A stretch of DNA of 63,803 bases, the filler included, from Parasitella parasitica NRRL 2501 (lineage: Eukaryota > Fungi > Mucoromycota), in the NCBI GenBank assembly GCA_025201805.1. It is 14 parts of 14 records of this genome, joined end to end, with 100 filler letters (N's around TTAATTAATTAA, not from the genome) between each part and the next. Parts side by side here need not be neighbours in the genome. Positions count along the whole stretch, not along the records: positions 1 to 4,747 come from MU619300.1; positions 4,848 to 6,861 come from MU619584.1; positions 6,962 to 9,279 come from MU619568.1; 11 more parts are not named here. The stretch is one strand, 5' to 3'. Positions 1 to 34,478 of the stretch are shown here, in pieces (position 1 is the first letter of the stretch; every line of letters begins with the position of its first letter). The position numbers and the translations under genes are program-made. Below the pieces are notes generated by a model, which saw only the letters and a program-made list of their open reading frames with translations, had not been told where the DNA came from and ran no database searches.

Positions 1-63
1 AAAACATCTTCATAAGCATCCCCATAAACATCTTCATAAGCATCTTGTTTTTTTGTTTATTTT

Positions 64-480
64 TGTTGAGGATACAGGTCAAATCTTAGCGGTAATGAAT
101 TATACTCTGTATAATACATCATAAAGCGAGCATGAGTAGAAATGCGTAGTAGAATGGAATGACTTTATTTAGACATGGCAAAGAGACATAAGTGGTGCCA
201 TTGAATGGCTGATCTTTATCCCAGTACAAAGTGGTGCTATCTTATGACATTTGGTTCCTGAGGTCGGTGTTAAATCCTGATGAATGTTCTTCCATCAAAG
301 CTACTAGGAACAACACTCTATCCTTTATACGTATCTATGCTTTTGTTTTACTGTTAACTCGGAAACTCTTATCCATCAAGCTCCTAGGGATTGGTTCAAG
401 GTGTACCCAATTATCCCTCATCCTAAATCATGGTTCTATTGCTGCGGCACTGTCAAATAACTATAAAACCTTCAAAATAT
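64..480 (-). mobile_element. Possible solo LTR (right boundary uncertain)
   Basis: On the minus strand there is TATAAA, then AATAAA, ending ...CCTCAACA at 64. No clear TSD or second terminus. Confidence 0.3.
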
Positions 481-575
481 ACACTAGTTTAAATCTTCAT
501 TCAATCTTGGAATAGCAAAATAAATATATTCAGTTCTAATTGTATTTTCTCTGTCTATATTTTGTTATTCAAATA

Positions 576-686
576 ATTTTGAATCGTTACCATGATAAAA
601 TTGTTTCGAAAACATTGGTGTTATATTTGTCGTGGCAACGATTTTGGCCAGAAACAAAATTGGCGAAGGCATCCGGAAAATGTCCA
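576..686 (+). repeat. Inverted ~111-bp copy of the 5' end of the 1121-2906 gene
   Basis: ATTTTGAATCGTTACCATGATAAAATTGTTTCGAAAACATTG...GAAGGCATC matches the reverse complement of 2812-2922 with scattered mismatches. Confidence 0.9.
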
Positions 687-1120
687 AAAATGACACTGGC
701 CCATGGAAATGAGGCTGTCGCAAAATTAAGAATCTTCATAAGCATCTTCATAAGCATGCATTGACAGTTTGACTGCAATTTGCACGCTATTGACAATCTG
801 GCATTCTCATTGGTGTTGGCATTCGATCGCACACCGTTTATCTCGTCTATTGTTTTACATCGTATTATTATATCCAGTCTTTTCTTTCCCTTATCATGAC
901 ATTTAGAGGACTTTAAATAAAACTCCGAGTACGCTCCCTACACAAAAAAAAAGTCTGGCTGCATTGTATTCATACGTCTGCAGAAACTCCTATACTATAT
1001 CACACGGCAGAACACATGAATATTCAAAGTTCATTGCGTACAGGAGAAATTTGTACTTGATTTGTTTTATTGACAATAATATCCACTTTGATTCGCTGCT
1101 CCATGAGAAAAATTGTTTAT

Positions 1121-2906
1121 TCATATGGCGAAGATTTGACAAACGGTGCGCGTTACTTCGGCATTTGCAGTGATGAGAGAGGGCGATATTTCATTCGCCA
1201 AATTGGTCAAAGGACGATTGAGTTGTTCATTGCCAATGATGTTGATGGTTGAGCTGTCATTGAACAGACTGAGAATCTCATAAATAATATTCCAAACTTT
1301 GCCGTTCGTCTTGCATTTTTTTTGTTGATCATCAACATAATGTCGGCTAAGGATAGCGTTTTCACCTTGTTCCCAAACAGATGCTGCGACTGCTCGAAAC
1401 AACTGGGATGCTATTTTTGCATCTGAATCCTTGTTCGTACCAGTGTTGCGGTCGGCAAGTGTCCAGATCGTAACAGGCCGCGAACACAGATCGTTTGCAA
1501 AGATGGAACATGATCGAGAAAGAAGATAAGTGGTGGTTCTGTGGAACTTGGACCGCACTTGTCGTAATTGCGCATACTCGTCAAATGGATATAATTCGCG
1601 GATGGACAGATCGTTGAATCCTCGTTGTCGCAGATCGCCATACCATTCAATAAACGATCGTCGGATAAAGATGATGGTATCTTTGCTGACACTGAACCCA
1701 TTTGTGCTGGATGGACCGACAGCTGGGGGCTGATTTTTGTCAATTCGGATGGATGATGTTATGAGGACATTCATTGTTTTCGTGCCAAGTTCAAGTTTAT
1801 GACTGTTATCTTTTTCGACAATGAACAGCTCTACATTTGGGTATTTCGTAGTTGGATGCGGTAAGGTTGTGTTTAAGGATTGATTGCGCTTGATCTTGGT
1901 TTGTTCATGATGAGCATCCAATGTGGGATATCGACTGTACACTTCTGCACAATTCACAAGCAGACCTTCACGCCTATTGACAAGAATCAGTCCCTCCATT
2001 GCACGAGCACAAACTACACGCATCCACGGACGCCGTGTCCAATCAATGTTCAATATGGTGGCGATATTTTCATCCATTTCCGTATAATCTGTTGCACAGA
2101 TACATGTCAGATGGCTGTTAGCGATCAGATGGGATAAAATGGATGCAGCAGGTCGTTGGTCGCCTGCATCCAACATTTGGAAATAACTGCGCTTCATCGG
2201 TGTGATTGCTTTGAACGCTGGAGCCTGGTCACCAAATTGTGAAGCCAAGAGGCTAGAAATGGCTGCGGAATGACCAAGCATATTGTGTTCCCTATTGTTT
2301 TCATCAAAGATCGCCATTGGGTGCAAATCGGCGAGTTCTGCAATCAGCAATTTCTTCTGCTTGTCGTCATTCGGTAAATCCATTGCACCCATTGCGGAAA
2401 GCGTCGCGTCTGAATATGTTCGTGTTTCATTGTGTGTTATGGCTGTTGATTCGAAGTGCAATGGTGGTTTACTGGGCATAAGCTCGTCAACAGGCAGGGT
2501 CACGTCGACATCTTCTGCTTCGTCTTCATCCTCGCTGTGTTCGCTCGCAGCATCATAATCTTTACTGAGTCTGAGAAACAATAACAAAAGAACAAAAACT
2601 TTTCAGATTAAGGCAAAGAACACGAAATAAAATGACTTACATTTTAAAATGTTCAGGAACATGGCAATCCAATTCTTCGAGTTCCGAGAAATAGTCGGGA
2701 CAGGAAGGGCAAACAAATACAGTCTTATCAGCATCGTCTTCATTTGAAACAAACAAATGATCTTTCACTTTCCGAACGTTGCCTTTCACACCAGCTTCAA
2801 GTTGAATATCATGAACATTTTTCAGATGCCTTCGCAAATTTTGTTTCTGGCCAAAATCACTGCCACGACAAATAAGACAGCAATGTTTTCGAAACAATTT
2901 TACCAT
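1121..2906 (-). CDS. C2H2 zinc-finger protein with putative AAG/MPG-like DNA glycosylase domain (2 exons, ~571 aa)
   Basis: Exon 2906-2641 encodes CLIC-x13-H-x4-H and CPSC..H..H fingers. A GTAAGT...CAG intron (2640-2571) joins it in frame to the 488-aa ORF. Block-wise similarity to 7374-9055. The glycosylase call rests on manual motif alignment only. Confidence 0.75.
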
Positions 2907-3049
2907 GGTAATGATTCAAAATAATCAAAAAAAAAAAAAAGCTGATAATGAGTAATTTTCTGGCTGGTGGCGAGCTGGCCTTCGAAAAAAGATGCTTGGT
3001 GCACCAACAAGTTTGGTGCACCAAAAAAAATCATTTTGAAGCAGCGACG

Positions 3050-4610
3050 AAAATCAGTTTGGTGTACTGTCCAAAATGCTTTTGGTGCATCTGCATAATA
3101 AATTTCGTGCAAAAATCAAAATGTATTTGATGCACTTTTAGTTCTTTTCTTACCACAAATATTAGCTTATTTTATGGATCAGTTTATTTTCGAAGATGGG
3201 AAAGAAAATCTCTACGATGAGCAGGGTGAATCAGTTGCTGTTCTCGCTATGGAAGTAGACGACGAACAATATCCTTTGGATAATATAACCAACTTCAGTG
3301 ACTATACGAACCTGAAGCCACCAGAAAAGCCGATCAAGAAAATCAAAGAAGATGGTTTGAAACAAGAAGGTGGAGATGCAGAACTCGAGGAACCCAAGGG
3401 AACACGGTATCGATCATACAAGAGCGAAGATAAAGCCAAGTTTTTCTTTCTCGTATACGAGAAGCAAATGAGCATCCGTGCAGCCTGCAAAATGGTCAAA
3501 ATCCCTCCCAGCACTGGCCAAAACTGGTACAAGAAGGGTGTGGAAAGTTTGGAGAACGACGAAGAGCTTTCTCACAAAAAAGTGGCCAAATCGTTTGGAA
3601 GACCACCAAAACTTTGTGAGGAGCAGAAAGAGGCTTTGATCAGCATGGTGGATGCCAAACCAGATTTAGTCTTGGAAGAAATGATGGATCAACTGAATGC
3701 TCAATTTATGGGTCTTGAAATTCGAAAGTCTGCTTTGCACGAGTCCTTGACAGAGAAATGCCAATTTTCGCTTACAAGGGCTCATTTCCACTCGGTATAG
3801 CGAAATAGTCCTGAAAAGATTGAAGAAAGATGCAATTGGGTCAAGCAATGGCAAGAAACTGACATGGATTTTTCAAGTAATTGCGTATTTATTGATGAGG
3901 CTGCATTCCATATCAACATGAAGTGCAACTATGCATGGTCGGTTAAAGGAGAGCGATCTGTTGTAAAGGTTCCCAAGACCCGAACAAAAACCACGACAAT
4001 TATCGGGGCCATAACACCCTTTGGCGTGATTAATGTTAAGGTAAAGCTTCCGAAAGTTTATGCAGCACCTTCGAAAAAAAGAAAAGCTACAGGTGGCCCT
4101 ATTCAGACTCAAGCAGATAAGGGAGGAACTGTAACTGGACATACTTCAATTTTGTCGCTAGCACCTTGGATGTGATGGATGAATATAAGGAGTTTGAAGG
4201 CCATTATTTGATAATGGATAATGCACCTATCCACAAAAACAAAGACATACAATTGTATATTGAAAGCAGAGGGTATAGATGTGTCTATATCCAACCTTAT
4301 TCCCCTGAGCTTAACCCAATCGAGCAATTTTGGTCCATTGTGAAAAGCAAACTTAAAAGAGTGGTACTTTTGGAAGAAGAAACACTGTCCACTAGAATTT
4401 CTGATGCTTGTAACAAGGTGATGATCAGCGATCTAGAAGGATTTTGCTGATACTCTGCTTTCAAGTGGGATGACTGTTTAGAAAAAAATGTAACATTAAT
4501 AAACCTACAAATTTGGTGCACAATGCACCAAACACCATTTTGATATTTGCACGAAATTTATTTTGCAGATGCACCAAAAGCATTTTGGACAGTGCACCAA
4601 ACTGCTTTTT
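3050..4610 (+). mobile_element. Tc1/IS630-type DNA transposon with ~85-bp inverted repeats
   Basis: 3050-3134 is the reverse complement of 4524-4610. Iterated (T)GGTGCA(CC) motifs lie at both ends, and the repeats enclose a transposase. Confidence 0.85.
3174..4500 (+). pseudogene. Tc1/IS630 DD34E transposase, disrupted
   Basis: HTH/GRP region, then FIDEAAF, MDNAPIH and YSPELNPIE with 34 residues between the second D and E. In-frame stops at 3798-3800 and 4448-4450, and a frameshift near 4140. Confidence 0.92.
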
Positions 4611-4747
4611 GTTAGTGATGTTTATGGGGATGCTTATGAAGATGCATATTGTAGCCAATAAAAATAAGCGATTTCAGATTATTTGTTGCGTTTTATTGGC
4701 TAATATAACGCGGCATTTTAAAAGATGCTTATGAAGATGCTTATGAA

Positions 4748-4847
4748 NNNNNNNNNNNNNNNNNNNNNNNNNNNNNNNNNNNNNNNNNNNNTTAATTAAT
4801 TAANNNNNNNNNNNNNNNNNNNNNNNNNNNNNNNNNNNNNNNNNNNN
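4748..4847. other. Artificial contig linker N..TTAATTAATTAA..N (also at ~6862, 9279, 13965, 15935, 18094, 27386, 29657, 30947, 32159, 34363, 36579, 62411)
   Basis: The same 12-mer, with stops in all frames, is centred in ~100-nt N-runs. Confidence 0.97.
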
Positions 4848-5231
4848 AATCACTGGAGAAAAAACAGTGATTCTAGTTATAGAACAATCACTGGATAAAA
4901 ACAAATAGCACTTACCACAAAATTATTATAGCACTGGTACGTTTTGCTATGAAATCACGGTAATAAACATTTATTCAAAATTATCTAAAAAACTTTCAGC
5001 AGCAATTATATATCACGTTGGTGTACGTTTCTTTTTGTTATTATAGATAGAAAAAAATCAATTTTATTTGAAAATAGGCATATATTTTTGTCTGAAAAAA
5101 TTATTGGAGTATAGAGGAACTGACACAAAAGATATTATTATTATGATAAATGTTCATAGCAGCTGTATACATATATGATGTTTTCCGCATATGACAAGGT
5201 GCTATATTTTTTAGATACTGGATTTTTCTTT

Positions 5232-5390
5232 TGAGATTACGCATACTGGTTTTCAATTACGCATCAGCTTTTTTGAGTTACGCACCAGACAAATCTCAAT
5301 TGCGAATTTTTGAATTACGCATATGAAACTTTTGAAGTACGCATTAAAAAATTCGAATTACGTACAAAAAAATCCAATTGCGTACTGGAT
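5232..5390. repeat. Iterated ~21-22-bp subterminal motif (GA/CA)ATTACGCA
   Basis: About eight degenerate copies directly downstream of the Tc1 remnant at 5411-5704. Confidence 0.7.
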
Positions 5391-5410
5391 ATTTTTATTG
5401 ATTTGACAGA

Positions 5411-5704
5411 CTTAAAGCAAGCGCTCACGGTTCAAGCACCTCTCAAAAAACGAATGGGCATGTATTATCCATCCTTCGCAGTCGCTCACTATAACCTTCT
5501 TGGCTGACTCAATAATACGGTCACTGAAATTTGATGTTACAGTGAGAGTATCACTCTCTTGATACCAGCCTTCACCTTCGACCAGAACTCCTCGATTGGG
5601 TTGAGAAAAGGAGAGTAAGGGGAAAAATAGGCTGCCTTATAACCACGAGATTCAATGAGGTTAGCTCCCTCTGGGCTCTTGTGAATTGGAGCATTGTCCA
5701 TCAC
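5411..5704 (-). pseudogene. Tc1/IS630 transposase C-terminal remnant
   Basis: Minus strand reads VMDNAPIHKSPEGANLIESRGYKAAYFSPYSPFLNPIEEFWSKVKAG. It is cut at 5705 by an LTR. Confidence 0.9.
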
Positions 5705-5892
5705 TGTTGGATCAAAAGATAATAAAAAACCAAAGGTTAACGAGATACGAAAACTAAAGATACTTTATTTAAGATCGAAATTGCATCTGCTATTCATACT
5801 TTTTACAGCTACATAAATTTATGTTGACTTATTTCGATTACTAATTGACAAGACTAATTCACAATGACAATCTACTTGACAGGGTACGATAT
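5705..5892 (-). mobile_element. Partial LTR (family shared with 21794-22235 and 31208-31641), truncated by a CACTA end
   Basis: TGTTGGATCAAAA...TTAACGAGAT...GCATCTGCTATT...ACAGGGTACGATAT recurs in all three copies. Confidence 0.75.
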
Positions 5893-6200
5893 CACTATGG
5901 CGTCGCCGATGTTCTTATTAGAATATTGATGTGCATGCACGGGAACATTCTTTAAAGCCAAAAAAAGTGCTTATCGAGCTAGGTTAAGGCGATAAATGTG
6001 CTCATGCGAGAACAAAAATTGAAACATCTCATGATCAAATTTTTATGCTCAAATGAGCACATAAATTACTAGTTTCATAGGCTTAAAATTACGCTCAAAA
6101 GGCTTGAAAAAATGTGCTCATGAAGCGAAAATGTGCCCGTAAACTCAAAAAAATGTGCTTAAAAAAGTAAAATTTGCGTACAAAAATGTAGCTTTAGCTT
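5893..6200. mobile_element. CACTA (CMC/EnSpm)-like transposon terminus with ATGTGCTC-type subrepeats
   Basis: Begins CACTATGGCGTC. Related termini at 13158 (forward) and ending at 30096 and 31167 (reverse). Confidence 0.65.
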
Positions 6201-6639
6201 TTGTTTATTTCTCAATTTTTGTAGTATGAACCAGTAATTTATTATTGCGTTAATTTCATATCGCCACATACAGTATTGTCTTGATTATGTAGCCTTTGGT
6301 TGACACAGGCAATGATGGAGAACAGTGCAAGATTAGCTATTACCCGATTCGAAATTGAAGCAGCTACTGAGGTACTGTATTTTGAGGACAATTCCGCCGA
6401 TTAAATTTTTATTTCGTGAAATCTCAAATTCAATTTCGTCAGAATTACCTTTGAAGTTCGTAATAGGGGAGGCTAGCTATACTGTAGTGCTGTATTACTC
6501 TGGATCACCTTGTTGAATACGTAAAAAAATTATGATTTAAATAATGAATCAAAAATTGATGGTGTATCCATCTTCTTCTTCACACTTTACAGTATATCGC
6601 ATACAATTTTTCAAATAAAAGTTACATACATTTTTAGCC

Positions 6640-6861
6640 ATGTCAACAAGTGAAAATTCAAACAGAAATCAAAATGTCACAGATCAAAGACATCCACACT
6701 CAAAGCGAGGGCCCTACGGGAAAACAACTCTTGAAAAGCGTACGAAAATCATTGATCAAGTACTGCAAGAAGGTTATTCACCAGCAGAGGCTGCAAAGGA
6801 GAATCGTGTTGCAGTTTCGACGGTAAATACAATGGTAGATGTCTTTATCAAAGAAGGGCGC
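6640..6861 (+). CDS. Transposase N-terminal HTH fragment (IS630/Tc1-like), cut by gap
   Basis: KRGPYGKTTLEKRTKII...SPAEAAKENRVAVSTV fits an HTH pattern. Confidence 0.6.
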
Positions 6862-7029
6862 NNNNNNNNNNNNNNNNNNNNNNNNNNNNNNNNNNNNNNN
6901 NNNNNTTAATTAATTAANNNNNNNNNNNNNNNNNNNNNNNNNNNNNNNNNNNNNNNNNNNNAAACAGTATCGTTTGTTTTTAGAAAAGGGTATTACACAA
7001 TTCAGGAAAGTAGTGTCGCATCTAAAAGG

Positions 7030-9278
7030 TATAATGTGTCCGTCCAAGCTGTCCGTTCAGCCAAAATATAAAAAACCTATAATGCGTCCGTCCATTTAGG
7101 CTGTCCGTCTATTTAGGCTGTCCAAACTGTTCGTTCAGCCAAAATATAAAGAGGCATCATGTGTCCGTCCAGTCAAACAAAAATATTGTAAAAATTCTAT
7201 TATTTCTTTATTCAACATCTGTAAGCATTTGGTGATAGAAATAGGAGAACTCTTTAAAACTTGATACTTTATTCGAAAAAATGGACGTAGTAATAAAAAT
7301 GGATGCAATGATATTTAACCAACATACCTGTTACACTGGAATGGCATACTAAAATATTTGTAACTGACTGAATCTATGTCCTTTTAATTGAAATCGAAAT
7401 TGATTTCATCACATTATTGTTCGCATTTGCAATGTAAGGGTTTAAAATAACTGCAAGTTTACACAATTCATCATTCAATACTTTGTTTTCAATTATCTTG
7501 ATTTGTTTTGATTCATCAAACAAATCAAGTATATTCTCCATGCATTCTTTTACTTTCTCACCCTTACATTGCGAAACAAGATTCTGTATCATCTTTTCTT
7601 CAACCGTGGCTGCTTCCTGGTATTTTATAACTCGAATAGCAATGTTATGAAATAGTTTTGAGGCTATTCTTCCATCAGAATATTCATCATTTTGACTATC
7701 AAAGTTGCAGTATGTCCATATTGTGTAAGGCTGCATTATATGATCATTAGTATCAGTCGAGCTTCCTCTACTGCTAAAATATGTGGAATATTGATGAAAT
7801 TTTGATCGAAGTTGCCTCAATTGGTAAAGGATATTGAATGAATAAACTTCTTGCGCTGATTCGTCTTCTGCCAATTTTTTTGCATCGTACCATGCTGTTT
7901 CGTCAATGTATATTTCAATCATCCCAGCATCTTCTCCGTTTAATACAAAGTTTGACGTTGTTGGCCCTACTTCCGGAAGTAGGTCTCTGTCAATTCTTGT
8001 GCTCGAAGTTACTAAACCATTAAATACTTTCGTTCCCACCAGCAGTTTTACGCCATCCGGATCTCTTACTGTCTTTAAACAAAGGTTTTTGTATCTAGCA
8101 TTGTTTAGTGGTAAAGAATTTGGTGGAAACATATTTTTTTTTATGTTAAATCTTTCATAATGACTGTCGATCGTTCTAAAACGTCCATATACTTCAATTG
8201 TGTTGATGAGGAGTGTTTCACCAGTCATTCTATTGACCAGTATAGCCCCTGAAAGAACACGGGTGCAGAAAAATCGCATTTGAGGCCGAAAAGCCCAGTC
8301 GTTATTTAGTAATTTGCATGTATCGTCGTCCATCTCGAAATATTTTTTTCCATTCAAATATTTATGCATGTAACTACTTGCGATTATGTTTTGAAGGCTA
8401 ATACTTCCTGAAACTTGACAATCATTAATGCTTTCTCCCAGACACTCGCATTTTCTTTTGACTGGTGAACAATGTTGGATCTGTGGTGGTTGTTTCATTC
8501 CTATAATTTTGTTTATAACATCTTTATGTGCCAGTGCATTTTCTTCGTTATTATTTGAATCAACAAATGCAAAAGGCTCCAAATCTAAAGCCCTTATTAT
8601 TTTCAAAGACGATACTTGTTCATGACGGCTTCGGTGTATTAACCCACTTGCATTTAAAATTGCATTGTTATTATTACGAAAAGTTGGGCTGGTTACTTCA
8701 ATCTGCTTTTCAGCAATTACAGGTTGTGATGAACGCGGTACTACTGTCAAACAGAGCTCCTCTTCCTCGTCAACACCATGTTTTTCCTCTTCCTTGTTGT
8801 GTATATTTCGGAGATGCTTACTGATTGACGAAGTAGTAATGTAAAGACGCGAACATAATGGGCAAATGAATTCACCATTCTCGTTTCTATCGCAAATAAT
8901 AGTCTCTACTGAAGAATTTAGCACACATTTCATAAGACCTTTAATATTTGCATACCTTTTCCTACTTGTACGTCTACCGTCTGGAGATGGTATTCATATT
9001 TATGTTTCTTGGAAGAAACTTTTTCTTCGCATTGTAAGCAATTTTCGTGAGACATTTGTTCCAAAGAAAAATGAAAAGTAAAGAAACGTGGCGTAATTCG
9101 TTTATTACTTTTCTGTGAAGGCACCTTTTTTTTATCTTGGCTTGGACGCACACATTATAGGTTTTTTTTAATTTGGCTGGACGAACACACATTTTATTTT
9201 GGACGGGCCGACAGCTTAAATGGACGGACCTATTATAGGTTTTTTATATTTTGGACGGACCCATTATGAGTTTTTTAT
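7030..9278. mobile_element. TIR-type element with GTCCGTCC-iterated inverted arms enclosing the 7374-9055 gene
   Basis: CCAAAATATAAAAAACCTATAAT..GTCCGTCCATTTA(G/A)GCTGTC at ~7061-7104 matches the reverse complement of ~9211-9254. Many GTCCGTCC copies on the left and GGACGGAC-like copies on the right. True termini are not resolved. Confidence 0.75.
7374..9055 (-). CDS. C2H2 zinc-finger protein with putative AAG/MPG-like domain (2 exons, ~544 aa), paralogue of 1121-2906
   Basis: Exon 9055-8956 (MSHENCLQC-x13-HLQTVD, a degenerate finger) is joined in frame by a GTATGC...CAG intron (8955-8909) to the 519-aa ORF, which has CPLC..H..H. Collinear blocks are shared with the first copy. Confidence 0.75.
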
Positions 9279-9379
9279 ANNNNNNNNNNNNNNNNNNNNN
9301 NNNNNNNNNNNNNNNNNNNNNNNTTAATTAATTAANNNNNNNNNNNNNNNNNNNNNNNNNNNNNNNNNNNNNNNNNNNN

Positions 9380-12025
9380 GTTTTATTTGAATAATTTCTC
9401 ATTCTGATAAATCATACACTCTTCATCCATGTCCCGCCATGCTGATATCGCTCCATTTGCCCAGTGGTTGCGTACTTATTTTACAAACTGTCATCCTGAA
9501 GGCCTTCCAACGTTCCCTCGGAGTAATACATGCATTGATTACATTTTTGGTCATTGTTCACTTGCTCCTTGGTTGGCCAACAGTCAGTTGTTGTATATGC
9601 CTAGTAGGTGGACCGATCACTGTCTTTTGACTGTTGATTTACTTCCTGCTAGTGCTAGCATTGGTCCTGGTAGTTGGCGGTTCAACCCTACACTACTTGA
9701 AGATGAAAGATTTATTGCGTTGTTAAATGCCACAGTGTCATTGTTCTTCTCCGATACTGCTGATAGTGGGTCTAGGGGTAGTGGGTCTAAGGGTGTAAAT
9801 ACTAGTCATGGTGGTAGTGGCGACCCTGAAGGCACTGTTGCTAGATGGGAATCCTTCAAGTTGTTGCTCAAGTGCTGTGCACAAAAGTACACTCGAGGCA
9901 TGAAGTCGCGGTTCAAGAACAAAGTCTTTACCTTACAACTGGAACGTATTCGGGCTCTCTCATCTAATTCTGTATCGGGTGTTCAGACTGGTGATGCTTC
10001 AATAGTAGGTCAAGCTGAAAGAGTGTCTCCTGCTTCAGGTGATTCTGAGCAGGTCAGGCAGCTTGAAGTTTTGATTGAGAATCAGATACAGAAAGAGACT
10101 AGTCAGAATATGCTTCGCTCTGCTACTCGTTGGCATGAACAGGGTGAGCGTAATAACAAGTATTTCTACCGTGTGATCAAGAAACGGCAGTCTCAACAGA
10201 CTATCCAATCCTTAAAGTGCTCTACTACTGGGGATATCTTGGTGGATGCAGCAGCTATCAACAGGGAGGCTCAAGGTTTCTACCAAAAGCTATACACTCC
10301 TGATGCTGTGGATGCTGAAGCCATCGATACTCTCCTAGGGAATATTCCTCCTGAAGTGAGTCTATCATCTTCGGATGGGGATAAGCTGACGGAGATGCCA
10401 AGTCGTGATGTTGTCTACCTTTTGCTCGCTCACTCTCCCAAGTCTAAAAGTCCTGGTCTTGATGGTCTACCTTTTGAATTGTATCAATATCTTGCTGGTG
10501 TCTCTTCTGCTTTTCTTGACTTGCTTGTGGATGTGTTGGGCGGTGCCTTTGATGGTGTGTTTCCTCCGTCGTGGCAGCAAACTAGAATGGTACTCTTGTT
10601 CAAGAAGGGTGACCCGCAGTTGCTGATCAACTGGAGACCTCTGTCCTTTATTAACAGTGATGCCAAGTTATTTACAAAGCTCATTGCTAATCGTATGAAC
10701 AAGGTCTTGCCAAAGTTGATCAATCCTTATCAAACTGGGTTTCTTCCTCATCGTCTGATCTCTGATAATGGCTGGCTAAATCAATTGCTGATGTCTCACT
10801 TACGTACTGTCGCTCCAGATTTGCCTCAAGTTGCTGTCTTATTAGATCAAGAAAAGGCTTATGACCGCGTTCACCCCGAGTATCTTCGTCTTGTTTTGCT
10901 GCGGTTTGGTTTCCCTGCTATTTTGGTATCTTGCTTGTCGTCTTTGTTCTTTGGAACAAAGATTAATGTTTCTATCAATGGTTGGCTTGGTGCTCCTGTT
11001 CCTCAGTTGAGAGGTCTTCGTCCGGGTGATCCATTGTCTCCATTACTGTTCAATTTGGCGTTTGAGCCACTTCTTCGTTCTCTGCTTGCTTGTCCTGGTC
11101 TCTCTGGTGTCACCCTCTCGCCTGTCAGTATCCCACAGAAATGGAAGCCTTCACCGGTGGAAGTTCGTGTGGATCTTGGTGATGGTTCCTGCAATCGACA
11201 ATTGGACTATGTTAGTCGTACTGGTGCTCCGTCTCCTGTCAAGATTCTAAGCTATGCTGATGATCTGGAAGTGTTCTTGTCGTCCCCAGATGAGTGGCCA
11301 GTCTTGTTGTCTCTATTGGATCTATATAGTCGAGCGTCTAACGCGAAGGTCAATCTTAGCAAGACTGTGCTGGTGTCTCTTTCTGGTAGGCCGCATTCTG
11401 CTTATGTTGCTTTGGCGCATGCTGCTGGTATCCAGTGGCATGATGCTCTCTCAAGTGATGCGGTCCGATACTTGGGTTATCCCTTGTATCATACTGATAG
11501 TCAACTGAGTGATTTTCTAACTGACTTATTGGTAAAAGTCCAAAGGCACAGTAACTTGTTGAAGCAAAGAAATCTCTCCATTCGGGGAGCTGGACTTGTG
11601 GCTAACTCGTTGCTGTTGTCCAAGGTCTATCATGTGTTGCGTGTTGTTCCTGGTGGCCCTGCTACTGAGTCGTGGGTGATGGCTCTCAAGAAAGTAGTTA
11701 GGGAGTATTTGGTGTCGTTTCGTCCTGGTGTTGCTTGGTCGACCTTGTGTCTTCCTCGCAAGTTTGGTGGTGTTGGTTTGGTGGATATAGCAGATCAGAG
11801 CTTGGCTCTGCATCTTATCTATTTGCAACGCTTGTTGCGTCCACCTTCTCATTCTAATTTTGTCACTGCTTGGTTGGTTTACGCCTTCCAAGTATACACT
11901 GGTCATAAATCTGTCTTGCCTTGGTTCTCTTTTCCAGACAAGTTCAAATTTCGTGTATCTTCTGTGCCTGTCCTTAAACATCTTAGCAATCTTCTCCTGA
12001 TAAAACTACCCAAGCTAGTTCCTTC
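9380..12025 (+). mobile_element. Non-LTR retrotransposon ORF2 (L1/Tx1-like, APE endonuclease + RT), truncated
   Basis: Motifs IDYIF, TDH, WRFN, GERNNKYF, PGLDGL, NWRPLS, DQEKAYD, GLRPGDPLSP (the Q of QGD is replaced by P), YADD, RYLG and GGVG. The 3' end is replaced by an LTR-like insert at 12026. Confidence 0.95.
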
Positions 12026-12810
12026 TGTGAAATACATTCACCATGATGATCTGCATTCCACTTCTAGATTCATCCAGTTACCTTAAATTGATATAAACTA
12101 CATATGCGCACAGATAATAAGATGTGCAATACAGATTTATACTATATAAGATATAAGCTAGAGATGGCACCATTAAGATGGATGACGCTATAGACTGATA
12201 CTTATATCTCGACACGAGCCTTAGACATTTACTAGATTTAGTATATGCTACGAGCTTATGCTATATAAGATCTATGCTTCAGATGCGTATTCCCAGTTTC
12301 TAGATACGCACTACAAGACATATACTTATATCCATAATACTAGCTACAGATACATCATGTACTACAGACTTGTACAATATGTGCAATGCTATAGATATGC
12401 TTATGACATGCTATAGACGTGCTACATATACCGATATATGCTAAGATGAATACAAAGTGATATACACTCAGACATGTACTATTAATATAGACTGGATAAG
12501 ACTATACAAGGAATGATATACGCTTATGGATCGATATTAATAATCTTCGCATAGAAGATTGATCAGGGTACTACCTCGGGTAAAGTCTATCTCCTCACTC
12601 AAATAGATTTAAGTTATCTTGAGTCTGCTGATATGTAGGTTAGCACAAAGTTAAGATGCTAGTTACGCAGTATTGTCGTACATGTTAAATTGCGAGAATA
12701 GAACATTTATCCACAGTTTAAGTATATAAAGGTTCATCTACCTGGCCAGTAGATGAACCAGAGCTTTATACACCTGTCGATTTGATAATAAAACCTATAC
12801 CTTATCAAGT
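12026..12810 (+). mobile_element. LTR-like sequence; second near-identical partial copy at 13739-13964
   Basis: Starts TGTGAAATAC. TATATAAAG at ~12723 and AATAAA at ~12787. The first ~225 bp recur at 13739. The 3' boundary is uncertain. Confidence 0.65.
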
Positions 12811-15934: not shown

Positions 15935-16359
15935 NNNNNNNNNNNNNNNNNNNNNNNNNNNNNNNNNNNNNNNNNNNNTTAATTAATTAANNNNNNNNNN
16001 NNNNNNNNNNNNNNNNNNNNNNNNNNNNNNNNNNTTTGTCTTCTTTGTGCGGTGCCTCGGTGGTAAGTCATATCAAAGTTCCCAGCCGTTGGCCATCCCT
16101 CAAGATCAAACCAATATCCCGGTATTCATGCCGCTCATTTGCTACTACCACACTTTCTTTTTTCCCCTTTTTATCTTTCGTTAGTGCACTGATAAGGGTT
16201 TTTGCAACTGTTTCTTTTAATTTTCTGGAATTCTAGGCTTATGCTCATATCGAGTGCCCATTGAATTCATGTAATATATTAATAAAAACAACCATTAAAC
16301 TGAGCTAGCCCGGCAACCAATTTTTTACCTAATTTGGAACATCCACTTTTTGTAAGAAA

Positions 16360-17658
16360 TTGTATAACACTTCATCCATCCATCTTGATAAAAGCTTCAT
16401 CATTGCATCCTTCGAGAAAATTAACTCATCTACCTCGTTGCCTTCAGATTCTCATCTTTCTGGCTTGAAACGGCCTATTTCGTCTCGATCTCCACCTTTA
16501 TTTGCGTTTGATCTCGTACAACAAATAAAGTCCAAAAGATCCTCAACAACATTTGGAGATCCCAAGCCCGCTCCTCCTGCCCGAATGAATCCATCAACAC
16601 CAGATATGATTGATTTCGGTGTCACTGCCCTCCCGTCTGCCTCTTCTGAGGGCGACTTGAACATTGCGTCCTTCGTTCTCGAAGTTCGCAATCGTTTGAG
16701 TCGTCTAGAGTCTGCTCATGCTGAGATCGCTCGGCTAAGAGCAGCTTTAGCAGAATCAGAGTCTGCTCGTCAGGCTCTTGAAGCTCAAATTTCTCGTCTG
16801 TCTGCTCCTTCTGCTGCACCAGCTCCACCAAAAGCCGCCTCTTTTGCTACTGTTGTTGCTGCTGCTGCTGCTCCTACCTCTGTTTCTGTCCCTGCTCTTT
16901 CTGTTCCTGCTGCTGTTGCTGGCAAAAAGAGAAAAGCGAAATCTGCTGCTCCTCCGCCCTCCATCAAAAAGGCTGCTGCCACTGTAAGTCGTTTGTTTGG
17001 CCCGCACTCTGATATGCCATCGGAATATCAGTTTGTCTATATGGGTATTGCCCGTCGTCGCCCTCTTCAGGAGATCCGTCGCACTTTACAAGGTATCAAG
17101 ATCAACAATTCCCGTGTTCTTGATATCCAGTACCCTATCCCACATGTTGTCTCCTTTCTCGTACACCAAGATTATGTATACACTTTCACCAGTGCAATGC
17201 ATTTGAAAGGTCGTGGCTGCTCTCCTCTTCTTGACTTTGATCCTTGTGATCCCAAAAATCTTTTGGATCCAAAGTATGACTCTCTCTCTCCCTCTCTTCG
17301 TGCCGAAAAAGCATTAGAGATTGAAAATCTTCGTTGTCTCCGTGCGCTGTCGTTTGTCCGTCGCTCTGTTCGTCTTTCTGTTGCTCGTTCTTTCCTCCAC
17401 TATGAAAGAATCACCCAAAAACAATTCGATGCGATTGTAGCAGAAGAATCGTCTTTGCGTGCTGCCGCTGCTCCTCCTCCTGCTCCATCTGCCACTGCTG
17501 TTCAAGATCGCTTGGCCAAGAAACAACGCCTCAGCTATCTGCGCAACCTGCTGTACTTTGATTCAGCCACTGCCAAATCTTTGGCATATACTGAATCCCC
17601 TGCTCTCTCTCCTTCTGCTGTTACTGACACAGAAATGCCAGAAATCTCTGGTGTTTGA
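16360..17658 (+). CDS. LINE ORF1 (gag-like; coiled coil + RRM-like domain), likely ATG at 16585
   Basis: Coiled coil, SFATVV, then YQFVYM..RR..EIRRTL..IKINNSRVLDIQYP...FLVHQDY, which resembles Mucorales LINE ORF1. Followed by a pyrimidine-rich spacer. Confidence 0.75.
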   Translation: MYNTSSIHLDKSFIIASFEKINSSTSLPSDSHLSGLKRPISSRSPPLFAFDLVQQIKSKRSSTTFGDPKPAPPARMNPSTPDMIDFGVTALPSASSEGDLNIASFVLEVRNRLSRLESAHAEIARLRAALAESESARQALEAQISRLSAPSAAPAPPKAASFATVVAAAAAPTSVSVPALSVPAAVAGKKRKAKSAAPPPSIKKAAATVSRLFGPHSDMPSEYQFVYMGIARRRPLQEIRRTLQGIKINNSRVLDIQYPIPHVVSFLVHQDYVYTFTSAMHLKGRGCSPLLDFDPCDPKNLLDPKYDSLSPSLRAEKALEIENLRCLRALSFVRRSVRLSVARSFLHYERITQKQFDAIVAEESSLRAAAAPPPAPSATAVQDRLAKKQRLSYLRNLLYFDSATAKSLAYTESPALSPSAVTDTEMPEISGV

Positions 17659-21793: not shown

Positions 21794-22235
21794 TGTTGAG
21801 ATCTGCAAGATCGAAATAAGAAAAGTATAATATAAAACGTTGAATTAACGAGATACGAAAACTTGAGATTACTTTATTAAAGATTCAACTTTGCATCTGC
21901 TATTTATACTTTTTACAACAACATAAATTTTTTGGTGACTTATTTAAAATACTAGTCGATAGTAATCGATAAGAATAATTTGCAAGCAACATCATATCCT
22001 TAACAGGGTACGATATATTATTATACTACAAGGTTATTGATCTTTGATCTGACAGTACCTTATTGTTTGTCAATCATACAGATCTGTGTTACAGATAACC
22101 TTCCTGATTTGAAACAAAGACTTTATTCTCCTGTTTCGACCAGTATAACAACACATCATTGGACAATCTCCAATCTTTAATTGAAGTACACTATCATGAT
22201 CTCCTAACCTACATTATGGCAGATCAGGCACAACA
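21794..22235 (-). mobile_element. Solo LTR
   Basis: TGTTG...CAACA ends, with TATAAATAGCAGATG and AATAAA on the minus strand. Homologous to the copies at 5705 and 31208. Confidence 0.7.
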
Positions 22236-27485: not shown

Positions 27486-29656
27486 TTTTCAGTTAGGCGG
27501 TTGATGATGATGCTTAATTGTTTTGCATGTAGTTCCATATCATCCGAATGTGTTATACAATAAACATCATCAATATATGTCAAACAAAAGGGTAAATCAC
27601 CTAGGATATCGTCGAGTAAGCGACTCCAGGCGCTGCCAATAAAAGTAATCCCGTATGGACAGGAGGCAAAGCAGTAAGCAGTATTGCGGTGCTGGAAGCT
27701 GGTTTTGACCTGATCTGACACATTTAGGGGTAGTCTCAGGTACGCGGTCGTAACGTCAATACAAGAATAGATTGCAGCACCTGTTGCTTGTTTGAAGATC
27801 TCGGAAGGCAATTTTATGCTATAATTGTCAAGACTCGAGGGCAGTAGAATACTGTTGAGTTCTCGAACGTCCAAGCATGTCCGCCAGGACATAGTACCGT
27901 CACCCTTCCTTTTTGGGGCAAATGTTACAGGATTATTCCAAGGGCTAGGAGGGGCTTTTTTAATGATGCCCTTTTCCAACCAATCTTTCACTGTTTCGTC
28001 AAATACGGGCATTAACTTCTCAGCAATTTTGTATTGACGGCGATTTCTAGTTTCGTTTGGTATCGTATCAAGCTTTATTAGAGCCAGAGGATGAGGACAT
28101 AGTTCTCTAACATCAATAGCTTGATTTCGGTTAATGGCAGGTTCAATGGCTTTCATCAGACGTGCATGCTCACTCTCCGTACCAGCGTTCGATATATTAG
28201 GTACGTATTTTTCATCGACAACGGCATCATCATACAGGATTTTATTATCATCCCAATTAAAGGCGACGCCTGCTAATGTAATGCCCAGTTTTGAGAAGAT
28301 ATCACACCCGAAGAGCGAGTGTTTATCATTTCCTAATTCCTTCATGATGAAGAAAGAATGATGCACATCACGACCATTATATTTGATATGGATGTCGTCC
28401 GTTTTACCTAATAACAGTATATTCTCATTATTTGCCAGTGTTATGTTTACATCGGGGCAAGGGTGGATGGTAATATCGTATTTATTACACAAGTGAGAAG
28501 ACAGGATGGAGATATCAGAGCCTGAATCGATCAGAGCTAGTTACCTATGTATGCCCAACAATAAGAAAGGAGATAATGGAGAATATGGATTTTGATTTAG
28601 TACGTCATCATTTGTATCGACCATTTGTCTTCTCTTGGTAGTACTGATTAGCATACTACACAAAAGATTGCCACATTTACCATTATTATCAGATGATGGG
28701 ACATCGAGGTCATTCATTGTGCTTTCATCGAGGAATTCAGCCATGTCATCGTCGTCAGTAAGAGGATTGATCTGACTCAGGATTTTCATAATATTCTGAG
28801 CGCAGTCAGTCAAATCCTGTTCGTTCACAGGATGCATATTGCTCTGCCTAGCTGTACGCACCATGTTGACACCCGCTGTTTTGGCTAAAGTGTATGGATT
28901 GTTATGGTGGGGATTAGTCAAGTGTTCGGTGAAAGACTTGCGTCTCATTGCAAACGTACCCGTGCGATTCATGTTGACAGGCTGGTCTATGCCCTTTGCA
29001 GCGTTTTGTCGTGCATTTTGAAAAGCAATGCGTTCTGGACAGAAATGACCCGGGTAGAACTTGACTTTTTCACAGTGAGTACACAGTGATCCGGTCTGAG
29101 GTGGGGCAGCAGTGTTATGTCCCTTGCGATCTATTCGCTTGAAGGGGGGCGTCTTTGCCTCATCATTAGAAGCGGCTGGTCCGACCGCCAGATTGTCAGA
29201 GCGTCCACGCTTTCTATCATTGGCGCTCTTGGTCTGTTTTTCTACCTCGACTTGGTATCGTTCTAACAGATCCCGATGCACGGAGGAAGAATGAACTTCC
29301 AAGAGTTCCATGATCGACTGCAAGTTTTCATGAGGTAAAATAGCGTCGCTATTGACGGGAGGGCTAATACTACCTAGAGCTGCCCGCATCGTGGGTAGCT
29401 TTGCTTTCAAATATGTTTTCACATACTCCTTTAATGCAGCGAAACACATGATTGCCATAAAGACAGAATCAGGTACTTGGGCTTTTGCCATCAGGATGAT
29501 AAAGCGTTGAAGGAATTCCATCAATGGTTCGTCAAACCTTTGGCGCAAGCTAATCAACTCTGAAATATAGTCGAATCTAGTGTTTGTCTCCATATATTTT
29601 TTGAGCAGTTTTGCTTTCATGTCATTCCAGGATCTGTAGGCCCTGCGATTTTGTTT
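27486..29656 (-). mobile_element. Ty3/Gypsy LTR retrotransposon internal region (gag, protease, RT)
   Basis: Gag with LRQ..DE...F and CxxC..H.C. Protease LIDSGS. RT motifs SPWNNPV, WRTCLDVRELN, PYGI and YIDD. Order PR-RT, with one in-frame TAA at 28541-28543. Confidence 0.92.
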
Positions 29657-30096
29657 NNNNNNNNNNNNNNNNNNNNNNNNNNNNNNNNNNNNNNNNNNNN
29701 TTAATTAATTAANNNNNNNNNNNNNNNNNNNNNNNNNNNNNNNNNNNNNNNNNNNNCCTTTTTTTCAGCCATTTGACTTTCGAAAGGTAAACGTGGTTAT
29801 TTTTTAATGTAAAGAACGAATCGTTCAAGAACGTTGATATAAAAAAATGAGAGTTATATGAATAACGATTATTTCCAAAGACAATTAAATAAAGAGACTA
29901 CAAGCGATTATATCACGGAGAACGTAGGGTCTTTATTAAAGATTGAAAAGGAAGCCAGGATTGCTCTGGTCCTGGTTTCTAAAAGTCTTTATACAATTCC
30001 ATTTGAATGTCAGTGTCAATATTGGAATTGAGATGAGATTCAACCTTCAATTAATAGGCGAAAACCGACAATGAGAACATCGGCGAGGCCATAGTG

Positions 30097-30544
30097 GAGC
30101 CCTAAATATAATCATCCTAGCTGCCATATCATACCAAGGTGTTGAGGATGTCACAGCAAAAATGGTCAAAGGCAGTACGAATTCAGAGCTTTTTCTTGAA
30201 CTCATAAAGCAGATCGTTGCAAGTCTGGATAGAAGTAATGCAGCCCCTCATTACTTCATTATACTCGTATACATGCCGCCGAATTGATTAAAAATTATTT
30301 TAGATATGCAACAAGGCATCATGTTCACTTTTTGCCAGCATACAGTCCATTTTTAAACCCTATTGAAGAGTGCTTCTCTAAATTGAAAGGCTTGGTCAGA
30401 AGAAAACCTGGATTGGATGCTAAAGAGCTCGTAAATTACATTGGAGAATGCAGCAAACAAATAGTTAGTGATAATTGCCAAGGTTGAGTTGATCATAGCA
30501 TCACTTTTTTTAAAAAATGCCTAGATGAAGACGAGATTTACTGA
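30097..30544 (+). pseudogene. Tc1/IS630 transposase remnant, abutting a short CACTA-like end (30073-30096)
   Basis: IILAAISYQGV...GSTNSELF and FLPAYSPFLNPIEECFSKLK, with stops and deletions. Confidence 0.85.
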
Positions 30545-31045
30545 ATATCGTACAATAAAATTCACATTTTTGTAACTTAAACTTTCACAGTTTAAAACAG
30601 TGACTATCTCAGAAAAGTTTTGATTTCTTGTTTTTGAATGAAAAATCCGGTATTTCACAATTACATGTCATATTACACAAAATATCCCTTTATTATATTG
30701 ATACAAACACAAAACAATAAACACACCTGTTTATCTTGTTACAAGCTATAATATAATATTGCCTATTGTATTATATTTAAATCTACTATCTCTGTGTAAA
30801 TACATCACACCTATCTGATACTCAATAATTATATTTGTATATGACAAAATTGTCAGGAAGATGTTTAGTGGACTCGTGCCGGAGGCAGTGCTCCAGCACA
30901 ATGCGAACAAGAAGCGGGTCTTCCGACCAACAGTGCCGGTCCGGCNNNNNNNNNNNNNNNNNNNNNNNNNNNNNNNNNNNNNNNNNNNNTTAATTAATTA
31001 ANNNNNNNNNNNNNNNNNNNNNNNNNNNNNNNNNNNNNNNNNNNN

Positions 31046-31167
31046 ACGCACATTCTGGGCAAAATCATTTATGTTCTCACAAGCACATAAATGCTCCCAT
31101 GACCCTAATAACGTTCCCATTTGAGCACATTTATGTTCATCGAGATCATCCAGGAGGCCATATAGTG
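31046..31167. mobile_element. CACTA-like terminus (reverse orientation)
   Basis: Ends ...GGCCATATAGTG; its reverse complement matches 13158-13275. Confidence 0.7.
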
Positions 31168-31207
31168 CACAGGGAAATGTTGTGCAAATGTGATATTTTA
31201 ACGTAAT

Positions 31208-31641
31208 TGTTGGATCAAAAAAGAAAATAAAAACCAAATGTTAACGAGATGCAGAAACTTAAAGATACTTTTTTTAAGATCAAAATGGCATCTGCTATTT
31301 ATACTTTTTACAGCTACATAAATTTATGGTGACTTATTAATAGATTACTAATTTTTGACAAGACTAATTTACAGTGACAATCTACTACTTGACAGGGTAC
31401 GATATGAGGTTATACAACAGGGGCTACACGTCTTTGATCTGACAGTGCCTTAACCTTTATCCTGGTGTTCAAATCTGTGTGACTTACAGGAATAACCTTC
31501 TTGATTTGAAACAGAGACTTTATTCTCCAATTTACACAAGCGTATCACACCCCATCATTGGAAGTACATTGCCATAATCTCCTGTCTATAATATTACGGC
31601 GGATCACACCTGCTGTACCCATTTTTGTGATCTGGCACAAC
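31208..31641 (-). mobile_element. Solo LTR (same family as 5705 and 21794)
   Basis: Collinear similarity with 21794-22235 along its length. Confidence 0.7.
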
Positions 31642-32259
31642 CGCATATTAGAAGATTAGCTGCTGCATCAATTTTCTATAATTAATATGTTGTTTAAGCT
31701 TTGAGTTGAACTTTAGTATTCGCAAACAAACAACGCCTATCGTTAAATGACCAAAAAAACCAGGGCGTAGCAAATAATTTTGATATTTAATGCGACAGTA
31801 ACTTACCAATACATCGACCATTTAGATTGAATTTGGAGCTGTCATTTTGAATTGATTGAGTTTTATCTGCTTTTATTATTGCATTCGTAAGCAATAGTAA
31901 TATTAAAGGTTTCGTAAAAAGAGGAGAAGAGAAAAATTGAAAATAAAAACAGTTTACATCATGGTATAATAGTAATCTACTGTAGGTCACATAACCAAAT
32001 CTTTGTAGCCAGGGAAACGTTTGCCACATTAGTTGCTGTGCATACTCACTAGCTGCACTAAATGAACGAATATAAAATGCACTGCACCAATGCTGACAAT
32101 AAACATGATGCTTTTCTTTTCGAGATGTATATCAATTTCATCTTTGTGTCAAAATACANNNNNNNNNNNNNNNNNNNNNNNNNNNNNNNNNNNNNNNNNN
32201 NNTTAATTAATTAANNNNNNNNNNNNNNNNNNNNNNNNNNNNNNNNNNNNNNNNNNNNA

Positions 32260-32433
32260 TTGAAGTGTAAAACTTGCAATATTTACTGGAATCGCGATGC
32301 CGTGGCCTCGAAGAACATGCTCACCATTGCCACATCAATTTGGTGTGGAAATGGCCGCCCCCAGGTCTTCAAGAGACATACCGCCACCTCCAATGTGGTT
32401 GTTGCTGCTCACTCCGGTGAGTCAGCAACTTAA
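32260..32433 (+). CDS. Fanzor/TnpB C-terminus (Zn-ribbon CxxC + RuvC-III), 5' part lost in gap
   Basis: Not in the ORF track. It reads LKCKTCNIYWNRDAVASKNMLTIA..IWCGNGRPQVFKR...*, and CxxC-x3-WNRD-x2-A-x2-N is the TnpB/Fanzor signature. Confidence 0.88.
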   Translation: MKCKTCNIYWNRDAVASKNMLTIATSIWCGNGRPQVFKRHTATSNVVVAAHSGESAT

Positions 32434-32480
32434 AGATATTGCAGGTAAAAAGCTGTAGCAATTCTGATTCTTCTGAAAGA
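32380..32480 (+). ncRNA. Candidate Fanzor omegaRNA scaffold
   Basis: Hairpins GCCAC/GTGGT, GTTGCTG-CTCAC-TCCG-GTGAG-T-CAGCAAC and ATTGC..GCAAT overlap the ORF 3' end, where Fanzor omegaRNAs typically lie. Boundaries are inferred. Confidence 0.5.
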
Positions 32481-32489
32481 TACTAACAT

Positions 32490-32578
32490 TGTCTCCATGT
32501 TCGTACTCATGTCCCATTTTCATCTTGTTGTCCCATTTTCGTATTCGTGACCCATTTTTGTAATCGTGTCCCAACTCA
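32490..32578. repeat. ~20-bp periodic GTCCCATTTT motif array
   Basis: Five degenerate copies just downstream of the Fanzor end. Confidence 0.7.
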
Positions 32579-32640
32579 ATTTGGAAATGACCAAAATTTA
32601 TTTTCATTGGCCCAACCTAGTTTCGTTAACTGTAGTAAAG

Positions 32641-32794
32641 TGTCACCTAAATCATCTCACATACAAATGAAAACTAAGGTAGCGATTGTTGTCGATTACT
32701 TGATTTTTTTCTTGTTGTCGACAACAAGAGAAAATTAAGGTGGTTGTCGCTAAACCGCTATCTCATTTGTATGTGAGACGATGGTTTAGGTGGC
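32641..32794. repeat. ~155-bp foldback (MITE-like hairpin)
   Basis: TGTCACCTAAATCATCTCACATACAAATGA pairs with TCATTTGTATGTGAGACGATGGTTTAGGTGGCA. Central perfect palindrome CTTGTTGTCGACAACAAG. Confidence 0.8.
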
Positions 32795-34478
32795 ATTGCT
32801 TTATTACTAGTAGTCGTTAAAGGCCTTGCTGAAGTCTTCTGGTAGGGTTGATTGTTACCGGTGTATGCATTGTTTCTCCACATCCAGAATGCATTGTAAC
32901 TAGTAGTATTCAATCCGTTGTACTTGAACGTTCGTGATACTCCTCCTATGAATTTTACATTGATGGGATATTCACCCTTATTAATATCTTTCTCCTCCCC
33001 CAATGCAATGATTTTATTAATTTATTATTATCATTTTCTTTGATCAAAACAAGTTGGATGAACCGAAAAAATGCACTTTTTTTTAGTTCTTTCATCTTTT
33101 TACAGTTTCTCCTTGTTAGGACACTTGCCAAAACATTTGGCAGAATGCTCGCTAATTCTAGTCATCAGTGTATCTTTTTCTACAATCTTTTTATGGTTTC
33201 TGAAAAAAAAAGTTCAAGTAAATGTTAAGTATTAGGGTTTCTGATAACAAATCCCCTATTTCTGATAAAAGCTGAGAAGTTTCTAAGGAAAGATGAGCCA
33301 CACCTGTTTTATCCTTTTACTATAAAGAAAGGTATACTTGTGGCATCAAAAATACTTACTTTGTAGAGATGTGTTGTGTACTAGAATTGATATTGACGTG
33401 GTATCATCTCCAGATAGATATTTTTTACAGCTTAAAAGCAAGAAATTTATCTTCATGTGTCGTTTTTGATTGATTTTCATAATCAAAAGTGCCCTGAAAA
33501 CAACAGAAATAGTATGCATTGGGAAAAAACCATATTATATATGATTTTGGTGCAATTTGAGCATGATTTTTTTTTCGATGCAAAATGACGGATTTTTTCG
33601 ATTTTTTCCTTGTATCCACACATCCAAAATCGTCGATTATGTGTTATCCTCGATTTTGACCACAAAAATGCAACTTTTTACTATAGCATATATTGGAGGA
33701 AAATGATCGTAAAAGACCGTTCTTTGGTCTGAAAGAGTGGAAATGCGCTCTGGTTAAACAAAATATTGACTTTTTCCTCTTGATCTGTTTTTGAGGTTTT
33801 CTCGACATAATTCCTTCCATGAACATACGGGGGTTATCAAAACGACACCATCGTGTAGAGCGTCCAAAAATACAGCCATTACCATAGACTGACAACCGTG
33901 GTATGAATAGTATCAGAAGATGATATCTTGCCTCAAAAGAGTAATTTGTTTTTCGAATTATCCAAATGGAGTTTCTGAAAGAACTTTTTTCTTCCTAATT
34001 TTGAATATGTTTAATCTCCGCTATCGAAGAAAAATGGTGCTTTTTTGAAGGAAGCATTAGCTTTGAGAAGCTATAGCTTACCCAATTCAAGCGAAATTTT
34101 TTTGCATCTAGTTTACCTAGATAATGTGCTTTTTGGGTTTTTAGTGGTAGTACTTGCATGCCTGTACCTGGCCTGACGATCTCACGCTCCAATTTTGAAA
34201 AATACTTTTCCGAAAAAAGTCAGAAAAGTCGCTACCTTCATTTGATTTCAAATTAAAAAATACAAAAACTTGCTCTAAACTATGCAATTATGTAATCAAA
34301 AGATGCCTTATAGTCTAATGCATTACTTTGCATTACTTGTTTTTGTGTTTGAGATCGCTAAANNNNNNNNNNNNNNNNNNNNNNNNNNNNNNNNNNNNNN
34401 NNNNNNTTAATTAATTAANNNNNNNNNNNNNNNNNNNNNNNNNNNNNNNNNNNNNNNNNNNNAATATCTATTTTAGTT

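Follow-up and report, generated by a model that had tools for sequence, protein, structure and literature searches.

Zinc-finger genes with a predicted AAG-like core in inverted-repeat, probably mobile elements of Parasitella parasitica and other early-diverging fungi

Introduction

The AAG fold is that of a compact housekeeping repair enzyme, and the PabI-family restriction glycosylases have a fold different from the AAG-like one predicted for the proteins considered here. These belong to a gene family of early-diverging fungi that joins zinc fingers to an AAG-like core, represented by gene 1 and gene 2 in a stretch of DNA from Parasitella parasitica NRRL 2501 (the window, 63,803 nucleotides with filler). 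Fanzor1/TnpB is an accessory DNA-acting enzyme, under selection and passed between hosts, that forms the sole gene of transposase-less terminal-inverted-repeat (TIR) elements in Rhizopus, Phycomyces and Mucor (PMC3627910). TET/JBP dioxygenases are base-modifying enzymes aboard many fungal DNA transposon lineages, in Basidiomycota and Ascomycota, where they sit beside a transposase and lack terminal repeats of their own (PMC12730594). The PabI family performs sequence-directed base excision for mobile systems in prokaryotes, paired with a methyltransferase (PMC10273834). The Parasitella genes resemble each of these in part, the last by a predicted activity only, but they differ from Fanzor1/TnpB in a glycosylase fold instead of a RuvC nuclease and in protein fingers instead of a guide RNA (which was not searched for here), and from TET/JBP in fold, chemistry and the possession of terminal repeats.

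Our analysis indicates that an AAG fold very probably resides within a mobile unit bounded by TIRs. The family is real and apparently undescribed: the earlier note on this DNA knew of no account of it, and searches of the open full-text literature listed none of it or of AAG-like folds in transposons (subscription journals, Repbase entries and supplements lay outside the search).

Results

The window consists of short contigs strung together with N-linkers, so that gene 1 (contig 1-4747) and gene 2 (contig 6962-9279) are not neighbours. Both lie on the minus strand where the earlier note had placed them, with the motifs it quoted (1121-2906 and 7374-9055). Gene 1 runs from an ATG at 2906 to a stop at 1121 and encodes 571 amino acids (aa). 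Its exon 1 (2641-2906) carries two C2H2-type zinc fingers, a 70-nucleotide (nt) GT-AG intron occupies 2571-2640, and exon 2 (1121-2570) encodes an acidic linker, a helical segment, the AAG-fold core (about 1340-2110, included in alignment A6) and a C-terminal helical domain. Gene 2 runs from an ATG at 9055 to a stop at 7374 (543 aa), with its first finger in exon 1 (8956-9055, the N-terminus of P0001), a 50-nt GT-AG intron at 8906-8955, and the second finger, the core (7671-8363) and the C-terminal helical domain in exon 2 (7374-8905); its product is identical to P0001, encoded by a 2318-bp contig and labelled Parasitella parasitica by NCBI. The proteins are diverged paralogues with a shared core, as had been claimed (BLASTP, 35% identity over 475 aa, E 1e-77), and the N-terminal fingers are likewise present, though below the Pfam cut-off (zf-C2H2_4, E 1.3e-5 in gene 1, and 0.045); these weak finger matches are all that a Pfam scan of both proteins returned, with none in the core. 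Both genes are likely transcribed and spliced, since contigs of run X7, which is RNA by our guess only (the listed runs include none catalogued as RNA), lack both introns (for gene 1 the joint is 2570-2641) and none of the other runs examined has these joints.

The core is predicted to adopt an AAG fold along the whole domain. Moreover, the predicted counterparts of AAG Glu125, Tyr127 (together the ExY motif) and His136 are retained at equal spacing in 135, 133 and 130 of 136 relatives, so that the conservation of ExY that the earlier note had expected of homologues is indeed observed. These 136 are the proteins, among 193 of the family, that span the core, and their mean pairwise identity is 38%. 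In gene 2 numbering the three residues are E271, Y273 and H282, accompanied by R275 (127), D280 (132), R337 (129) and D339 (131). The glutamate codon lies at 8193-8195 in gene 2 and, judged from sequence and conservation, at 1943-1945 within N-C-A-E-V-Y in gene 1, both on the minus strand. The claim of an AAG-fold base-excision enzyme thus stands as to predicted fold and ExY, but not as to kinship detectable from sequence: no Pur_DNA_glyco or other core Pfam match was found in 13 members and 21 further proteins, and a PDB sequence search with family proteins gave no match. Identity to AAG/MPG itself (Pfam PF02245; PDB 1ewn, 3qi5) is about 10%, and the family has features that AAG lacks, namely invariant N268, R275, E284, S334, R337, D339, QLRQ and R413, the fingers, a helical tail of about 100 aa, and a multi-copy, mobile character. 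Nor did the family proteins match RuvC or 2OG-Fe dioxygenase domains in Pfam. A homodimer prediction scored 0.00, with the protein's own fold uncertain and the alignment left unused, and ESM Atlas features for gene 1, which pointed to unrelated HEAT-repeat clusters with low shared counts, were set aside. The top structural matches in BFVD were the uncharacterised A0A1V0SB56 (Catovirus, E 1.9e-3, prob 0.99) and A0A3G5A9Y1 (Hyperionvirus, E 7.2e-3, prob 0.97). They share only 127-141 aligned columns with the family at a TM-score of about 0.3, and are probably plain proteins of AAG size, possibly giant-virus AAG-fold proteins; they offer a lead for origin only.

Both genes lie between inverted ends. 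The earlier note had said as much, and the ends are real: CATCTTCATAAGCATC and TATAATGYGTCCGTCCA have six matches each, all flanking the two genes, which none of 100 shuffles equalled. The 127-bp inverted arm at 560-686/2812-2938, by contrast, is rejected as a terminal repeat, being the broken 5' piece of another gene copy. Element 1 spans 727-4648 and is bounded by inverted repeats of a 12-bp unit beginning with TA. Downstream of gene 1 the unit occurs 2.6 times (727-758, plus strand, TA start) and aligns with the 3' end of L002; upstream (4617-4648, minus strand, TA end) the outer 21 nt are identical to the 5' end of L002. This L002 is a complete metagenome contig of 2070 bp that matches element 1 at 93% identity but has no Tc1, and it carries the family gene alone (with one frameshift) between 22-bp perfect TIRs. 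Element 2 has ends unrelated to those of element 1, with three repeats per side, inverted and spaced by about 50-75 bp. Its left arm (7030-7171, plus strand) holds three subterminal repeats of the type TATAAT(N)GTCCGTCCA, and the contig of a second copy diverges near 7030-7039; the right arm (9143-9279, minus strand) carries the inverted subterminal repeats, 75% identical to the left arm over 117 bp, and its true end lies past the contig end. The left flank of element 2, a 30.5-kb contig, has half the gene-body depth in all three DNA runs, as do variant contigs, which points to two copies. The TA at both element ends may be a target-site duplication or part of the TIR.

The family is large. 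A first search found 13 relatives among 6287 candidates and a profile search 52 among 7995, and among 1.84 billion representatives there are 1381 clusters at E<=1e-3 (923 at 1e-10, 373 at 1e-30), 150 of them listed. Members with an organism name belong to Mucorales, Umbelopsidales and Mortierellales, with Syncephalis in addition; 17 of 20 divergent clusters checked have organism names, every one from such early-diverging fungi. None of 98 pattern matches on viral contigs and none of 26 in prokaryote genomes was a relative, in searches seeded by a pattern that distant forms might escape.

Copies within a genome are dispersed. In Cokeromyces, and again in Phycomyces nitens, two contigs encode identical proteins, with a third copy at 99.8%, and two R. 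delemar loci are 98% identical. The neighbours of the gene differ among loci L001, L004, L008 and L010. Measured against decayed copies, dN/dS comes to 0.64 and 0.43. Between genera, identity reaches about 90% among R. arrhizus, R. microsporus and Apophysomyces, 92% over 190 aa between R. delemar and Phycomyces, and 89% between M. circinelloides and R. microsporus, against about 35% for paralogues that share a genome. In a 42-row tree (all rows kept, midpoint root) the four copies from R. microsporus are spread over four starred clades. From these family-protein identities and the tree alone we read the family as one that spreads horizontally.

What moves these elements? Tc1-type DDE genes adjoin the family gene in element 1, in the decayed locus L003 and in R. 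arrhizus, where the accessions are consecutive and gene models are fused. In element 1 the neighbour is a Tc1/IS630-type element at 3047-4612 (plus strand; 89-bp inverted arms 3047-3134/4524-4612; about ten times the gene-body depth in run X1), whose DDE open reading frame (ORF) at 3174-4450 (DDE_3, E 2.8e-17) is broken by one stop and one frameshift. The earlier note had reported no DDE motif, correctly for the family protein, but had not mentioned this pseudogene within the ends of element 1. TA ends are typical of Tc1/mariner elements. Since Tc1 is abundant in these genomes (PMC5751038), the contacts with the family gene are perhaps mere nesting. As a separate observation, some gene models run family members together with neighbouring mobile DNA: P0196 includes a Tc1 DDE transposase, P0028 a weak Exo_endo_phos piece, and P0026 an N-terminus that may be Fanzor-like.

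The protein could instead be the element's own mobiliser, its fingers binding the subterminal repeats and its core making cuts at the ends or the target through base excision or some derived chemistry, with host repair completing the move. The presence of one gene between TIRs in L002 and element 2, end repeats that differ lineage by lineage, and catalytic-type residues that are near-invariant over hundreds of clusters and accompanied by cross-genus transfer, as in a transposase, all fit such a role. So does the depth of the element end bins, 20-30 times that of single-copy sequence and far above that of gene bodies, as would be seen with short derivatives, although summed contig depth is a rough guide and not a true copy number. 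Most copies have no adjoining DDE partner, and a weak search for relatives of 1144-3265 aa found no long fusion. Nevertheless, we know of no AAG-fold chemistry that joins DNA; the TA ends have the Tc1/mariner explanation just given; and the same fungi have transposase-less TIR elements with an accessory enzyme (PMC3627910). We therefore regard self-mobilisation as rather unlikely, and are equally doubtful of its corollary, a new eukaryotic class of DNA transposon that has a finger-guided derivative of an AAG-fold glycosylase as its sole enzyme and no DDE, tyrosine, serine or HUH catalytic domain. Mobilisation in trans seems to us appreciably the likelier of the two.

Contig 1 holds further pieces of this family. 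Positions 1-686 belong to another copy of the element-1 family, truncated and in the other orientation, with its 5' terminal repeat at 1-46 (plus strand; 28 bp identical to 4617-4644, inverted), a broken 5' fragment of a gene-1 relative in opposite orientation at 560-686 (plus strand, 87% identical), and an interruption from about 64-75 to 560. The interrupting repeat, at 64-560, starts near TA-CAGG at 73-78, has a depth of 29,000-48,000 against 156 for single copy in X1, occurs also in the RNA-like X7, and is probably a Tc1-type miniature inverted-repeat element of a few hundred copies. Another copy of the element-1 terminal repeat lies at the contig end (4722-4747, minus strand), and between the two terminal-repeat copies that end contig 1 a 12-bp inverted repeat, TAGCCAATAAAA, is found at 4653-4703. 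In run X18 the short side of a joint 2980-4720 comprises 23 letters, and this joint is not taken for an empty Tc1 site. A further diverged paralogue, at 2190-2534, appears as partial contigs in X1 and at a depth of about 230 in X7. Nine of 23 runs lack indexed words of gene 2, which is not read as absence because two of them share samples with runs that hold the gene; the lack of gene-1 cover in X17 is treated likewise. Elsewhere in the window there are more Tc1/IS630 fragments that bear tandem-repeat arms and have a 190-bp end in common (5229-5892, 6640-6861, 21822-22150, 30269-30529, 31208-31547), a LINE-type reverse transcriptase ORF at 9411-12086 (RVT_1, E 2.7e-27), to which a fragment at the window end, 62910-63803, is 95% identical, and long ORFs with no Pfam match at E 1e-4 at 38584-40875 (764 aa), 16333-17655 (441 aa) and 51230-52243 (338 aa).

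Discussion

How could a glycosylase serve the element that carries it? We propose that the family gene sits alone between the inverted ends of elements of about 2-2.5 kb, likely mobile, which host Tc1-type DDE transposases probably move in trans. Glu271 would activate water for cleavage of the N-glycosidic bond, while the base pocket would be lined, as in AAG, by Tyr273 and His282. The site would be chosen by the zinc fingers, at element ends, the empty donor site or the target, and not by a Tyr162 wedge scanning for damage, and the excised base may be a purine, plausibly the adenine of the TA-rich ends. Host apurinic/apyrimidinic endonucleases would then nick or break the DNA at the lesion, and repair would draw on an element-bearing copy. 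Such abasic-site breaks would promote retention or spread, a homing-like role comparable to that of TnpB/Fanzor. Because catalytic-type residues are conserved in a unit that appears to spread horizontally, we infer that the activity benefits the element. Genes, inverted ends, multiple copies and the conserved Glu, Tyr and His are observed and splicing is read from X7, the fold is predicted, and the mechanism is our interpretation; the chain as a whole is our leading but tentative proposal, with somewhat less than an even chance of being right.

Several observations weigh against it. An hhalign comparison with 54 bacterial AAGs, local and global, gave 0.2%, with a real score of 13.2 against a shuffle maximum of 18.9 (controls were reversed and, 100 times, block-shuffled), and in Foldseek all E-values exceeded 1e-3 with TM-scores of 0.3-0.38. 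The equivalence of residues to AAG was set by order and spacing, not superposition. Tyr162, the wedge, and Arg182 have no clear counterpart: with Tyr162, Tyr159 and Arg182 checked, the hairpin turn shows no conserved aromatic at its tip, the likely Arg182 register is occupied by T/S, and invariant R275 and R337 lie nearby. Dispersed near-identical copies and TIRs (L002, elements 1 and 2) are found, where the earlier note had proposed to count copies and test for TIRs, but TIRs appear in one of ten fetched loci, L002 being the sole locus with both ends (the other nine are cut or decayed, and hence not assessable), no target-site duplication longer than TA was seen in the element ends, and no empty site was found in the sequencing runs examined. 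As for trans mobilisation, gene 2, L002 and L004-L010 have no nearby Tc1 match on the upstream side (in L010 one is 4.5 kb off), the Tc1 within element 1 carries arms of its own and seems nested, and the local Tc1 ends (CAGT/CAGG) are unlike those of the elements.

To these must be added copies that resemble ordinary genes. Sporodiniella has three adjacent diverged paralogues (P0137, P0125 and P0099, with consecutive accessions and 34-40% identical), and Apophysomyces has a segmental duplicate linked to a host gene, which show that some family copies behave as host genes. In the Sporodiniella trio, two members read E-A-Y-G and E-T-Y-G, nearer the AAG motif, but lack R275 and E284; these are possible domesticated copies. 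One could extend this to the entire family, as a repair enzyme or DNA-binding regulator of the host that duplicated in the ordinary way, came to lie among transposons by chance, and may have a non-catalytic fold; both window genes are intact and apparently spliced, and several copies sit on megabase contigs. The TIR-bounded single-gene contig L002, near-identical copies that are patchy across genera, the many broken copies and the multi-copy state with no neighbours in common make this quite improbable, and also depart from the single-copy syntenic pattern that the earlier note had set against its own proposal.

That note had offered the glycosylase as transposon cargo for anti-silencing or as a mobilisation factor, a view we support in part. 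As anti-silencing cargo the enzyme would be brought to the element by its fingers and remove a modified base (5-methylcytosine, 5mC, or an oxidised or alkylated derivative), much as TET/JBP genes carried by fungal DNA transposons may do (PMC12730594). In Phycomyces 5mC marks and represses transposons and silent repeats (PMC11258239), and observed-to-expected CpG is 1.04 and 0.92 in the two genes against 0.63 in the Tc1 and 0.74 for the remainder of the window, with coding constraint uncontrolled. However, AAG acts on purines (PMC12347255), 6-methyladenine accompanies active genes in Mucorales, and 5mC, low in Mucor, is scarce throughout Mucoromycota in general (PMC11258239), yet both Mucor and Rhizopus conserve the family; furthermore, TET/JBP genes lack the terminal repeats that the family genes possess (PMC12730594). 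De-silencing by base removal is for these reasons the weaker option, and an improbable one.

These fungi are multinucleate, and Parasitella fuses with its hosts. A selfish genotoxin, in which the enzyme damages the DNA of element-free nuclei or partners in heterokaryons, mating or mycoparasitic fusion, would suit such a life, and base-excision restriction enzymes do exist (PMC10273834). The elements carry no antidote or modification gene, however, and no secretion signal was noticed in the sequences, so that we give this idea very little credence.

More generally, hundreds of protein clusters in early-diverging fungi appear to contain an AAG-like fold that sequence comparison does not reveal, joined to fingers and carried from genus to genus by mobile DNA. 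With elements this small and a predicted catalytic residue that can be named, the cargo and mobiliser readings are directly testable. Even as cargo the protein would add to Fanzor and TET/JBP a new type of DNA enzyme borne by transposons, and if it is true that it mobilises the element it would represent a new chemistry of transposition. In either case, it would be a natural, predicted finger-guided base-excision enzyme, with possible use in base editing.
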